Assembly (NCBI GenBank): GCA_000092065.1
Contig: CP000600.1
DNA from: Ostreococcus lucimarinus
Lineage: Eukaryota
Strand: one strand, 5' to 3'
Length of the DNA: 64,000 nt
Every line of letters starts with the position of its first letter. Within the stretch, counting starts at the first letter, position 1. Positions 111 to 55,180 of this stretch are shown here, one piece after another. The notes under the pieces were generated by a model. It had not been told where the DNA came from. It ran no database searches and saw nothing but the letters and a program-made list of their open reading frames with translations. The translations under genes and the position numbers were made by a program.

Positions 111-1125
111 ATGGGTGCGTTCGCGACGACGCGACGACGCGAACGAAACCGCTCGCGCGCCTCGCGCTCGAACGCGACGTCGACGCGACGTCGACGCGAC
201 GCGAAGGACGAAGGACTGACGACGACGACGGCGACCCGACGACAGGCATCTCTCGAGACAGCTTGCACAAGCGTCGCGCGACCGGTGGGAAGCAGAAACC
301 GTGGAGAAAGAAGAGAAAGTGAGTATTAATGCGCGATCGATCGCGCGACGCGCGACGGCGACTCGAGGGGCGCAAGGGTGGGAAACGCGAGGTTTCGATG
401 GGCGTCGCGTAGGTTAGGGCTTTCGCGGGCTGCGGCGACGATGGGGTTTCGATGCGCGACGCGCGGGAGGGGCGATGGCGCAGCGATGACGCAGGAAACG
501 ATGACTGACATTATGTGCGTTCGCTTCTGTCGCGCGTAGATACGAGCTCGGCCGTCAACCGGCGAACACGAAGCTCTCTTCCAACGTCACGGTGCGCCAA
601 GTGCGCTGCCGCGGTGGCAACATCAAGCACCGGGCGTTGCGATTGGATACCGGTAACTTTGCGTGGGGCTCCGAGAACTGCACGCGTAAGACGCGTATCT
701 TGGACGTCGTGTACAACGCGTCTAATAACGAACTCGTTCGTACGAAGACGCTCGTGAAGAGCGCGGTCATCGCCGTCGACGCGGCGCCGTTTCGCGCGTG
801 GTACGCCCAGCACTACGGCAAGAAGATTGGTATCAAGGTTAAGAATGGTGCTAAGGTTGAGAGTGAAGACATTGAAGAGAAGCGATCTAAGTCTGTGACG
901 ATGAAGCTCCGCTCCCGTAACCAAAAGCACGAAGTTGCCAAAGCGATTGACGAGCAGTTTGCCACGGGTCGTCTGTTGGCCATCATCACGTCTCGCCCTG
1001 GTCAGTGCGGTCGTGCGGACGGCTACGTCTTGGAGGGTAAGGAGCTTGAGTTCTACCAGAAGAAGATGATGAAGAAGAAGCACGCTGCGGCGGCTGCGGC
1101 CGCCGCGAAGGACGCCACCCACTAA
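111..1125 (+). CDS. RPS8: 40S ribosomal protein S8 (eS8); 3 exons 111-114 (ATGG), 246-318, 540-1125; introns 115-245 and 319-539
   Basis: Spliced translation [26 protein letters not shown]|[13 protein letters not shown]...[15 protein letters not shown]...[26 protein letters not shown]...[28 protein letters not shown] matches eS8 end to end. Donors are GTGCGT (115) and GTGAGT (319); acceptors are CAG (245) and TAG (539); ACTGAC branch motifs lie upstream of both acceptors; stop TAA at 1123-1125. The track ORF 592-1125 starts at GTG, not ATG. Confidence 0.85.
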
Positions 1126-1334
1126 ACGGACGGCGCCTTCGGTGGCTCGTATTCCATTTGTCATATCATCGAGAGCTAGTCTCGTGAACGCTCGAACGCG
1201 TCCTCGATCGTCGTCTCGCCCTCGCCCGCACGCACATTCGCCGCGAGCGATCAATCGCGCTACCGCTGCGCGGCCCAGCCGCGCGACCCCTCGCGACTTT
1301 TCCGTCTGTCCGCCGCACTCGCCGACGCGTCGCG

Positions 1335-1700
1335 ATGCGCCGTCGCGTCGGCGTCGATCCCCCCGTCCCCGTTCTCATGGCTCGCGCCCTCGCCGATCGC
1401 GCCCTCGGTGCCGTGCGCGTGACGTGTTCCGTGCGCGGTCTCGACGCCGTCGCGCGCGCTCACGGTAGCGCGCTCGCGTCGTGCGACGTCGTCGATCGAG
1501 ATTTGCCGCGCCCGGTGCGATGCGCCGACGACGACGAATCACGCGCGGCGACGTCGCGCGCGGACGCGGTGGCGCGTGAGCGCGCGGTGGTGAGCGCGAG
1601 CGACGCGCCGCTGTACGCGCGGAGAAAGTGGAAGGCACCGATGCGGCTCGACGTCGAGGTGGGCGCGAGTCTGGGCGACATCGAAAGCGCGAGCGCGTGA
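1335..1700 (+). CDS. hypothetical small protein (121 aa), ATG verified
   Basis: ATG at 1335 followed by an open frame to 1700; Arg/Ala-rich; no recognisable domain. Sits between RPS8 and a convergent minus-strand gene, followed by an AT-rich spacer 1701-1778. Could be a GC-artefact ORF. Confidence 0.2.
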   Translation: MRRRVGVDPPVPVLMARALADRALGAVRVTCSVRGLDAVARAHGSALASCDVVDRDLPRPVRCADDDESRAATSRADAVARERAVVSASDAPLYARRKWKAPMRLDVEVGASLGDIESASA

Positions 1701-1778
1701 GTCAGAGTAGTCAAAAGGACATACAGTAGCTTCGTTCGTATTAATAGGACGAAATAGTTAGTGCATCACGATGCCAAA

Positions 1779-53060: not shown

Positions 53061-53136
53061 GCTCGCGCGCGCGGTGCGCTCGCTATAGCTATTAAAATTG
53101 TCACACGCGCGCGCTCGAGCGTCGCGAGAGTCTAGT

Positions 53137-53850
53137 CTAATCGCCGTCGCGTTCGAGTCCGCCGCGCAACGCGAGCTGTCGACACCGCTTTTCAAACGCT
53201 TGAATCTGCGACCTCGCGACGTCGTCGAAGACCACGCTCACCGCCGCGGCGTGCATGGGATCTTTAACTTCAAAATCAATCTCGAAATCCACGATGACGC
53301 CCTCGGCGGGTAATCCCGTGACCGGGTCTTCGTCCTCGTCGTCGTCGAGCGGCGAAAATTTCCACGTCGTCGTCATCGACCGAAACAACCCGCTCGACAC
53401 GCTCGTCGCCGTCACGCGCTCCGGTCGCGCGCACGTCACCGCGCTCGTGTACTTCTCGTTGAATAATTTAAACCCAATCTCCAAATCCGCCTCAAAGTAT
53501 TCCTCCCCTCGCGCCAGCGCCTCGCGTTCGCGTTCGCGTCCCCATCGCTCTCGCGGCGTCCGCCTCGCCCCCGCGCAGAACGGCACGAACGCCGCGTAAC
53601 TGTCCACGTCCGCCACCGCGTCGCACAGCGCGTCTCGCGCGATCCCCTTGACGATTCGTCGCGCCGAGAACCGTCGCCGCGCGCCCTCGTCGCCGTCGCC
53701 GTCGCCGTTTCGCCCGTCGCCGTCGTCACCGCGCGTCGCCACCTCCCGCGCGCGTCCGAGCGTCGCGCCGGGCGTCGCGCGGGTCGGCCCCACGGCGCGC
53801 GTCGCGCGCGTCGCCGCCTCCCGCGCGCGCCTCGCGAGCGCGCGCGACAT
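53137..53850 (-). CDS. COQ10: coenzyme Q-binding protein COQ10 (START/SRPBCC fold), mitochondrial
   Basis: FSARRIVKGIARDALCDAVADVDSYAAFVPFCAGAR...YFEADLEIGFKLFNEKYTSAVTC...TTWKFSPL...GVIVDFEIDFEVKDPMHAAAVSVVFDDVARSQIQAFEKRCRQL. The track start 53964 is GTG; ATG at 53850 precedes a presequence-like MSRALARRAREAATRATRAV. Confidence 0.7.
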   Translation of the reverse strand: MSRALARRAREAATRATRAVGPTRATPGATLGRAREVATRGDDGDGRNGDGDGDEGARRRFSARRIVKGIARDALCDAVADVDSYAAFVPFCAGARRTPRERWGREREREALARGEEYFEADLEIGFKLFNEKYTSAVTCARPERVTATSVSSGLFRSMTTTWKFSPLDDDEDEDPVTGLPAEGVIVDFEIDFEVKDPMHAAAVSVVFDDVARSQIQAFEKRCRQLALRGGLERDGD

Positions 53851-54035
53851 CGCCGCGCCGCGCTCTGACGCGACGCGCGCGACGCGCGCGTGCGCCGAGT
53901 CCGACCGACCTCTCGTCCGGACTGTTTGCGCATACACCCGCGCGACCGACCGCACGGTTCGCACTGTTTGCCCCGCCGCGATGGGGCATCGCGATCGGGG
54001 CGCGCGCGCGCGATCGCGACACTCCCGCGCGCACG

Positions 54036-55180
54036 ATGTTCACGCTCTCCACCACCCTCGCGCACGCCGCCGTCAAGGCGAACGTCAAGGCGACGCGTAA
54101 ATCGCAATCGCGCCGAGGCGCCGTCAAGGTCGCCGCGCAGGCGCCCGACGCGTCGAGCCGTCGCGAAGCCATGAGTCTCATCGCGGTGCGTCCGAACGCG
54201 ACGACGCGATCGAGCGCGCGATGCGCGCGCCCGCGCGCGACGCGCGACGCGCGGGACGACGCGGGACGACGCGGGACGACGCGCGGAATTATTGTCGAGC
54301 GAACCGGCGCGCGAGGGCGCGGAGAGACGCGCGCGCGACGCGTCGAGGACGCGACGCGCGCGACATCATCCAACGAGATACTGACGATCGCGCGGCGTGC
54401 GGTTTCATCGAACGCAGGGCGCGACGACGCTCGCGATGTCCAAGCCGGCGTTCGCGGCGTACGGTGACTCGGCGAACGTTTTCGGCGGCGTGTCGAACCC
54501 GACCGGTGCGTGCGCGCGCGAGGCGCGAGGCGCGCGCGAGGCGCGCGCGAGGCGCGAGCGATCGTATCGACCCGAGATACGATTCGCGCGTGATCCGGGA
54601 CCGATGGGTCGTGATGTCGTGTGGGTAAACAGTGAGACTGACGAGACGCGCTACTTTCGCGAATGCAGGTTTCGTCCCGTACGCCGGCGACGGCTTCGCG
54701 TTCTTGTTGCCGAGCAAGTACAACCCGAGCAAGGAACGCCCGTTCCCGAACACGGAGTGCTATTTCGAGGATAACTTTGACCAAGTGACGAACATTTCCG
54801 TAATCGCCGAAAAAGCCGAAAAGGGGAGCATCGACGCGTACGGCAAGCCGGAGCAATTCTTGGAAAAGCTTGGGTACTTATTGGGCGTGCAATCGTACGC
54901 CGGGCAAACCCGCTCCGAAGGGGGGTTCGCGGCGAACAAGGTTTCCACCGCCGCCGTGCTCGACGTGTACACGCGCGAAAACAAGGGCAAGACGTACTAC
55001 CAATACGAAATTCTCACGCGCACCGCGGACGGCGACGAAGGCGGACGCCACCAGTTGATCACCGCCACCGTGAGTGATGGGAACTTGTACATCATGAAGC
55101 TTCAATCGGGTGACAAGCGTTGGTTCAAGGGTCAAGAGCGCGACCTTCGCACCGCGATGAACTCGTTCACCGTGGCGTAA
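54036..55180 (+). CDS. psbP: photosystem II oxygen-evolving complex 23-kDa protein PsbP; exons 54036-54185, 54418-54505, 54669-55180
   Basis: Exon 1 MFTLSTTLAHAAVKANVKATRKSQSRRGAVKVAAQAPDASSRREAMSLIA: stromal transit peptide plus twin-arginine signal. Exon 2 GATTLAMSKPAFA|AYGDSANVFGGVSNPT(G): hydrophobic core, AxA cleavage site, mature N-terminus. Exon 3 FVPYAGDGFAFLLPSKYNPSKE...YLLGVQSYAGQTRSEGGF...YYQYEILTRTADGDEGGRHQLITATVSDGNLYIMKLQSGDKRWFKG...FTVA is near-identical to plant PsbP. Both donors are GTGCGT (54186, 54506); acceptors are CGCAG (54413-54417) and TGCAG (54664-54668) with ACTGAC branch motifs; split codon G|GT joins exons 2 and 3. Confidence 0.9.

Follow-up and report, generated by a model that had tools for sequence, protein, structure and literature searches.

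Introns in a stretch of 64,000 nucleotides (nt) of Ostreococcus lucimarinus CCE9901 DNA (contig CP000600.1; the whole stretch is called the window below) are removed from transcripts and carry an invariant ACTGAC motif at a narrowly bounded distance from their 3' ends. Eight such introns, in the genes for RPS8, Sar1, ArgB, LUC7, NNF1 and PsbP, had been predicted from the DNA letters (the original prediction). Each of them holds exactly one ACTGAC, whose penultimate A lies 21 to 33 nt before the last intron base. For all 11 introns considered here, the range is 21 to 34 nt. They are almost certainly ordinary U2-type (major-spliceosome) GT-AG introns from the bulk genome of this alga, which is GC-rich and poor in introns. 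We are equally confident of the lineage grammar to which they belong, in which the branch box, (G)ACUGAC(G), is near-invariant and the 5' splice site, G/GUGCGU, is strong though atypical (here and below, a slash within a motif marks the splice junction).

Proteins and transcripts that define the introns

All eight introns could be rebuilt from the sequence at the places predicted, with support from annotated proteins for 8/8 and from transcripts for 7/8. The six spliced proteins match annotated O. lucimarinus CCE9901 proteins residue for residue: RPS8 is XP_001422585.1, ArgB XP_001422592.1, LUC7 XP_001422595.1 and PsbP XP_001422601.1, and the full set comprises XP_001422585, 590, 592, 595, 599 and 601. 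Exact 30-nt spliced junctions were found in three transcript contigs each for seven introns (two in RPS8, one each in Sar1, ArgB and NNF1, two in PsbP). These contigs are independent assemblies of RNA-derived reads from several runs (Logan runs, JGI and ENA samples). Counting two further introns described below, spliced junctions are present in transcript contigs for nine of 11 introns. The original prediction had named transcripts with splice sites elsewhere as evidence against it; the contigs carry the predicted junctions instead. Its claim that the strict signals validate the gene models is thus borne out by both proteins and junctions.

The eight introns all lie on the plus strand. RPS8 intron 1 (115-245; 131 nt, phase 1) begins with the donor GTGCGT at 115-120 and ends in ACAG. 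Its branch box GACTGACG has ACTGAC at 215-220, 26 nt separate the branch A from the intron end, and the exact spliced 30-mer occurs in transcript contigs L008-L010. RPS8 intron 2 (319-539; 221 nt, phase 2; donor GTGAGT, acceptor GTAG) has ACTGAC at 504-509 and a distance of 31 nt, and the Ribosomal_S8e domain (Pfam) bridges its junction. The Sar1 intron (16463-16615; 153 nt, phase 0; donor GTGCGT, acceptor CGCAG) has GACTGACG with ACTGAC at 16579-16584, 32 nt from branch A to end. Its junction is found in contigs L005-L007 and is bridged by the Arf domain (Pfam). In ArgB (acetylglutamate kinase), the intron at 27007-27261 (255 nt, phase 0; donor GTATGT) has GACTGACG with ACTGAC at 27236-27241 and the shortest distance of the eight, 21 nt (contigs L011-L013).

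The LUC7 intron (34525-34618; 94 nt, phase 0; donor GTGCGTG) is the sole T-rich intron of the set. Its box GACTGACT has ACTGAC at 34589-34594, 25 nt from branch A to end, and the LUC7 N-terminus domain (Pfam) matches from residue 3 onwards and runs over the junction (residues 32/33). The NNF1 intron (45711-45869; 159 nt, phase 0; donor GTGGGT) has the same box, GACTGACT, with ACTGAC at 45832-45837 and a distance of 33 nt (contigs L017-L019). PsbP intron 1 (54186-54417; 232 nt, phase 0; donor GTGCGT) has TACTGACG with ACTGAC at 54380-54385, again 33 nt from branch A to end (contigs L014-L016). PsbP intron 2 (54506-54668; 163 nt, phase 1; donor GTGCGTG) has GACTGACG with ACTGAC at 54637-54642 and a distance of 27 nt; it sits exactly where the PsbP domain match (Pfam) begins.

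The details of the original prediction hold with small corrections. It gave the motif positions to within a few bases, the last being off by about 6 (~54643 versus 54637). It placed ACTGAC 23-40 nt upstream of every acceptor, and the motif start lies 25-37 nt upstream in 8/8 introns. Five of the eight donors are indeed exactly GTGCGT. The base before ACTGAC, given as G, T or A, proved to be G in all but one of the eight, which has T; A does not occur. Finally, the introns were said to come from protein homology alone. Domains do span the junctions of RPS8 intron 2, Sar1 and LUC7, but four others (RPS8 intron 1, ArgB, NNF1 and PsbP intron 1) are N-terminal and outside any Pfam domain; all four are confirmed by transcripts.

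Population variants show which parts of the introns are held constant. The body of the NNF1 intron has 1-nt insertions or deletions and single-nucleotide polymorphisms, with donor, ACTGAC and acceptor unchanged. For PsbP intron 2, natural populations have two forms of the donor, GTGCGT (window, L002-L004) and GTGCGC (metagenome variant L001). The second form is also the donor of intron 1 of the serine hydroxymethyltransferase (SHMT) gene, described next, and fits the GYGCGY consensus in the literature, so either T or C is accepted at +6.

The window was also scanned with a composite pattern consisting of a GTRNGY donor within 300 nt, ACTGAC, and the first AG 18-40 nt beyond the branch A. The 12 matches were the eight known introns, two introns in SHMT, one candidate in a large gene, and one false positive at 9803, which fits the pattern but is antisense to a coding region. 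Dinucleotide shuffles yielded 4.7 ± 2.1 matches. The pattern is therefore enriched but not very specific alone, and reading-frame context is needed. With that restriction, the suggestion that the grammar could be used to find further introns was correct for the two SHMT introns, and gave one candidate.

The SHMT introns lie on the minus strand, and each is 114 nt long and in phase 0. Intron 1 (18927-19040) has the donor GTGCGC at 19040-19035 and GACTGACG with ACTGAC at 18965-18960, 34 nt from branch A to end. Intron 2 (18732-18845) has the donor GTGCGTG at 18845-18840 and GACTGACG with ACTGAC at 18757-18752, 21 nt from branch A to end. Both junctions are in transcript contig L005, and the spliced SHMT protein is XP_001422748.1. 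The two introns are annotated, but were absent from the eight predicted earlier.

Thirteen ACTGAC sites lie outside introns, all on the sense or antisense strand of coding sequence, and are due to chance (plus strand: 1971, 9803, 23351, 35732, 49225, 57201 and 58553; minus strand: 1006, 11645, 17403, 20076, 50738 and 51744). Conversely, no intron lacking ACTGAC was found in the window by a codon-usage gene finder, by inspection of gene 5' ends or by a relaxed branch scan. Several places flagged for hidden introns, namely the genes starting at 12589, 25228 and 61176, the RF-1 gene and the region at 22.9-24.8 kb, each have a plausible ATG of their own. A scan for GTGCGY with NCTRAC gave 10 matches, all of them antisense to coding sequence, within a solid open reading frame (ORF), or contiguous in transcripts. 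Real and spurious ORFs could not be told apart by GC content at third codon positions (GC3) alone, and an Rfam scan of the window gave no match to small nuclear RNAs (snRNAs) or other RNAs.

Nothing observed contradicts the grammar. The transcript contigs that were fetched cover only ~18 kb of the 64-kb window, so an ACTGAC-free intron elsewhere could have escaped notice. The transcript look-up for the LUC7 junction returned no record, and that model is supported by the NCBI protein and the Pfam domain.

Splice signals and related systems

Consensus sequences were derived from the ten confirmed introns together with the large-gene candidate (n = 11), all of which are GT-AG. At the donor, G/GTGCGT, positions +1G, +2T and +5G are invariant (11/11), -1G, +3G and +6T occur in 10/11 and +4C in 8/11; the hexamer is GTGCGT in 7/11, GTGCGC in 1/11 and GTATGT in 1/11. 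The branch box is ACTGAC in 11/11, extended to GACTGAC in 10/11, to ACTGACG in 7/11 and to GACTGACG in 6/11. The acceptor consensus is CGCAG/G. In every case, the acceptor is the first AG more than ~10 nt downstream of the branch A; an AG 4 nt beyond the branch A is passed over in the ArgB intron and in PsbP intron 2. The introns are 94-255 nt long with 57-74% GC (the window has 63%), all fall within the first 80 codons of their genes, and the density is about 0.3 introns per gene.

The introns are poor in T on the sense strand, with 12% T overall and 4-9% in six introns versus 17% in coding sequence. Between branch box and AG, the pyrimidine fraction is 0.39-0.50 in 8/11 introns, and most have no pyrimidine tract. 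An obvious tract, cttcccctcctcctc, is present in the orthologous Sar1 intron of Micromonas-like loci (L021-L027), ~30 nt ahead of the GLDNAGK exon. Because most O. lucimarinus introns lack such a tract and the Micromonas-like Sar1 intron has one, 3' splice-site definition may differ between Ostreococcus and Micromonas-like genera.

Established spliceosome biology suggests how these signals would be read. It is our source for three inferences: how the snRNAs pair, which nucleotide forms the branch and by what rule the AG is scanned. ACUGAC would be a G variant of the universal CURAY box (UACUAAC in yeast). Base pairing to the GUAGUA segment in U2 snRNA, in which the R position would form a G.U pair, would leave the penultimate A bulged, and this A would attack the 5' splice site. 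The second step would then take the first accessible AG more than ~10 nt downstream, which here is 21-34 nt from the branch A. With most introns lacking a polypyrimidine tract, the branch box and the distance would carry the 3' information. GUGCGU is predicted to pair imperfectly with U1 at +3 and +4, and its recognition probably depends on the invariant +5G and on U6 or protein contacts.

The grammar is already known, and our finding is a correct rediscovery of it from raw sequence. In the O. lucimarinus introns outside chromosome 2 that are confirmed by expressed sequence tags, ACTGAC is present in 87.2% and GACTGACG in 66.5%, and the atypical 5' splice-site consensus is GTGCGTG (Irimia & Roy 2008, PLoS Genet 4:e1000148; PMC2483917). 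The window introns share the species, ACTGAC, GACTGACG, GTGCGT(G) and the strong constraint in an intron-poor genome. The figures here (ACTGAC 11/11 against 87%, GACTGACG 6/11 against 66.5%, GTGCGT 7/11) reveal no substantive difference. By donor, branch box, species and removal from transcripts (9/11), they belong to these canonical introns. The window has 63% GC without an extended low-GC tract, which fits a location outside the low-GC, intron-dense region of chromosome 2. The introns of that region (BOC1/chromosome 2) are short and low in GC, with no discernible branch motif (PMC2483917; PMC3879977). Introns of 94-255 nt with 57-74% GC and an invariant box are not of this outlier-chromosome type.

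The canonical introns of Micromonas, with AG/GTGCGT and NCTGAC (Verhelst et al. 2013; PMC3879977), are close relatives in form. Those of strains RCC299 and CCMP1545 resemble the window introns in the AG/GTGCGT donor preference, the CTGAC-type branch motif and a Sar1 intron at the same codon. They differ in having NCTGAC as the box (GCTGAC in loci L021-L026), a clear pyrimidine tract, and the box 43-52 bp upstream of the acceptor (PMC3879977), whereas the window introns always have A ahead of CTGAC, a distance of 21-34 nt and, for the most part, no tract. GYGCGY donors occur across the Mamiellales together with a standard, uncompensated U1 snRNA (Roy & Bowser 2022, bioRxiv 10.1101/2022.06.08.495308).

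A more distant parallel is found in Saccharomyces and other hemiascomycetes. Their introns are functionally similar: likewise few and 5'-biased, they have a near-invariant U2-complementary box and a strong, atypical donor whose +4 base is a pyrimidine, while the pyrimidine tract is weak or missing. In contrast, the yeast box is ACUAAC and the yeast donor GUAUGU, versus ACUGAC and GUGCGU here. The window introns are not of the Saccharomycotina type: their box is GACUGAC, in which G occupies the R position and G instead of U precedes the A, and GTATGT is the donor in only 1/11. The likeness to yeast is convergent, not due to shared ancestry (for the convergence argument, PMC2483917).

Introners and other explanations

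The original prediction noted that shared intron ends would also be expected of introner-type repetitive introns, as in Micromonas. Among the alternatives, the one that survives best is that the canonical Ostreococcus introns, or a subset of them, are degenerate descendants of an ancient introner burst, with uniform ends as relics of mobile elements. This is conceivable because an identical GACTGACG box is found in IE-C, an introner of Micromonas RCC299 (Verhelst et al. 2013, PMC3879977), but we consider it very improbable. Slightly less probable still is that some window introns are introners of the kind seen in Micromonas pusilla, sharing GTGCGT ... GACTGACG ... CGCAG by descent within a mobile family. 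The box of IE-C speaks for this reading as well, and local alignment of the intron bodies in pairs does score slightly above dinucleotide shuffles (mean z 1.45, best z 6.3). Nevertheless, the best body-to-body alignments in an all-versus-all comparison of the 11 bodies (donor to branch box) were 25-90 nt of CGCGACG-type low complexity with scores of at most 26. Lengths vary from 94 to 255 nt, and there is no common internal block.

The best non-self BLAST matches of the introns, at 76-90% identity, were mostly coding or 5' regions of the window. Since these regions are CG-rich and the matches fall on either strand, the similarity of the intron bodies is compositional and does not reflect a family. 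The same CG-rich low complexity (CGCGACG or GCGCGAGG type) recurs on both strands throughout the window and encodes Ala/Arg-rich N-termini when coding. Apart from the intron bodies, it is found at about 10440-10830, 22300-22720, 40330-40610, 52340-52610, 53670-53900 and 61100-61400. It gives many BLAST cross-matches of 70-85% and could pass for a repeat family.

The Sar1 intron is old. In orthologous loci L021-L029, from Micromonas-like genomes of GC 0.64-0.67 and from one taxon of GC 0.53, an intron is likewise present at this codon (KILFL/GLDNAGK), with different signals: GTGCGT and GCTGAC, GTGCGC and GCTGAC, or GTAGGT and ACTAAC, each followed by a pyrimidine tract. Because of this shared codon position, the Sar1 intron predates the genera. 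The orthologues have a second intron, after QYPTSE and before the ELSIGQIKF exon, where the window is contiguous; this is a loss or gain difference between genera. Presence and absence did not vary among the four population variants, all of which contain the NNF1 intron, both PsbP introns and the large-gene candidate.

Micromonas introners (Worden 2009; Verhelst 2013; Simmons 2015, PMC4540971) and the window introns are alike in being functional spliceosomal introns (GT/GC-AG in the introners) with recognisable branch points in Mamiellales. Introners, however, are lineage-specific and present in hundreds of unrelated genes as nearly identical copies, whereas the window introns are unique, variable in length and in at least one case ancient. 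A recent introner family is excluded by the present data. An ancient one, its bodies decayed to CG-rich low complexity, would be compatible with them, at the low probability already assigned to it. The introner suggestion is not supported, and the shared ends are the splice-signal consensus of the species.

The pattern could also have arisen by chance or by circular ascertainment, with acceptors placed where ACTGAC happened to lie. Neither motif is enriched window-wide (ACTGAC, 24 observed versus 18.4 ± 3.9 expected; GTGCGT, 54 versus 70), half of the eight junctions fall outside conserved domains and so could not have been placed by homology alone, and shuffled sequence yields the composite matches given above. 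The signal, however, is purely positional. ACTGAC with its A 18-40 nt upstream is found for 23 of the 5,319 AG dinucleotides on both strands (0.43%), and its presence in 8/8 introns has p ~1e-19. GTGCGT makes up 0.7% of GT-initiated hexamers, and five or more of eight donors have p ~1e-9. Within the final 50 nt, ACTGAC is the sole hexamer common to the ten confirmed introns; over whole introns, only the compositional CGCGCG is shared by all ten as well. Moreover, the junctions were set independently of the motif, by transcript contigs (7/8) and by NCBI annotation (8/8). The transcript junctions already refute this explanation, and its probability is close to nil.

An invariant branch motif whose distance from the 3' splice site is constrained might also suggest minor-spliceosome (U12-type) introns, whose donor and branch sequences are highly conserved too, but this reading is just as implausible. 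U12-type introns are characterised by an RTATCCTT donor and a TCCTTAAC branch box 10-15 nt from the acceptor, whereas the donors here are GTGCGT, GTGAGT, GTATGT and GTGGGT, the box is ACTGAC and the distance is 21-34 nt.

A candidate intron, its surroundings and the use of the grammar

The composite scan pointed to one further intron, in a large minus-strand gene (ATG at 52313, stop at 47616) encoding 1,521 or 1,565 amino acids (aa). The candidate, at 52047-52178, is 132 nt long, in frame and stop-free. It matches the full grammar, with the donor GTGCGT at 52178-52173, GACTGACC with ACTGAC at 52085-52080, the acceptor CGCAG, and a branch A 34 nt before the end. Comparison of the four population variants over the first 1,913 nt of the gene placed 8 of 10 variable columns inside these 132 nt, i.e., a variability of 6.1% versus 0.11% elsewhere. 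The variable sites are spread over first, second and third codon positions as 2:3:3, and the donor, ACTGAC and CAG are unchanged. The codon-usage score of the segment is at the 8th percentile, a weak signal. The segment thus evolves like non-coding sequence, and we therefore judge it to be a probable but unproven intron. Against this, it is unspliced in transcript contig L014, the strand of which is unknown.

Searches for the products of the gene were negative. When metagenome contigs were scanned for the spliced junction (24 nt), only an unrelated GC-rich contig (L020) turned up, and a homologue search with the N-terminal 510 aa was empty at E <= 1e-10. The protein collection, looked up for exact matches, contains the protein in neither its spliced nor its unspliced form; the official gene model must therefore differ from both. 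If the segment is both spliced and retained, the isoforms would differ by 44 residues. For the 1,521-aa protein, the gene tables record no Pfam match. Towards its C-terminus (~47900-48600, minus strand), it contains acidic tandem repeats, EEDEDQIEPV three times, EEEEQ(I/T)TVG three times and SPRREIAVQT twice.

The ATG at 52313 lies 22 nt from that of a plus-strand ORF of 241 aa (52335-53060), which has been called by prokaryotic gene callers on metagenome and transcript contigs and has a weak TPR match. Either the 5' untranslated regions (UTRs) of the two genes overlap the coding region of the neighbour or one of the gene models is wrong. Some transcript contigs cross several neighbouring genes of opposite strand: L005 covers 16369-19136, L011 24858-31176 and L014 51522-55282. 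The stop codons of Sar1 (plus strand) and SHMT (minus strand) are 200 nt apart, both within L005. Transcripts or UTRs therefore overlap in this compact genome. A telomere-like motif of the plant type, GGGTTTAGGGGTTAGG, is located at 23725-23740, beside an AT-rich intergenic gap (~23750-24100) between the minus-strand genes 22892-23542 and 24093-24740.

For gene models, ACTGAC 21-34 nt before the first AG, together with a GTGCGY-type donor 90-260 nt ahead of this AG, is an excellent signature in reading-frame context. It recovered two annotated SHMT introns that had been missed and suggested one in-frame intron in the large gene. How a standard U1 snRNA recognises GUGCGU is a question already posed (Roy & Bowser 2022, bioRxiv 10.1101/2022.06.08.495308). 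The biology itself is not new: these introns represent a published textbook case of convergent splice-signal strengthening in intron-poor eukaryotes (Irimia & Roy 2008, PMC2483917).

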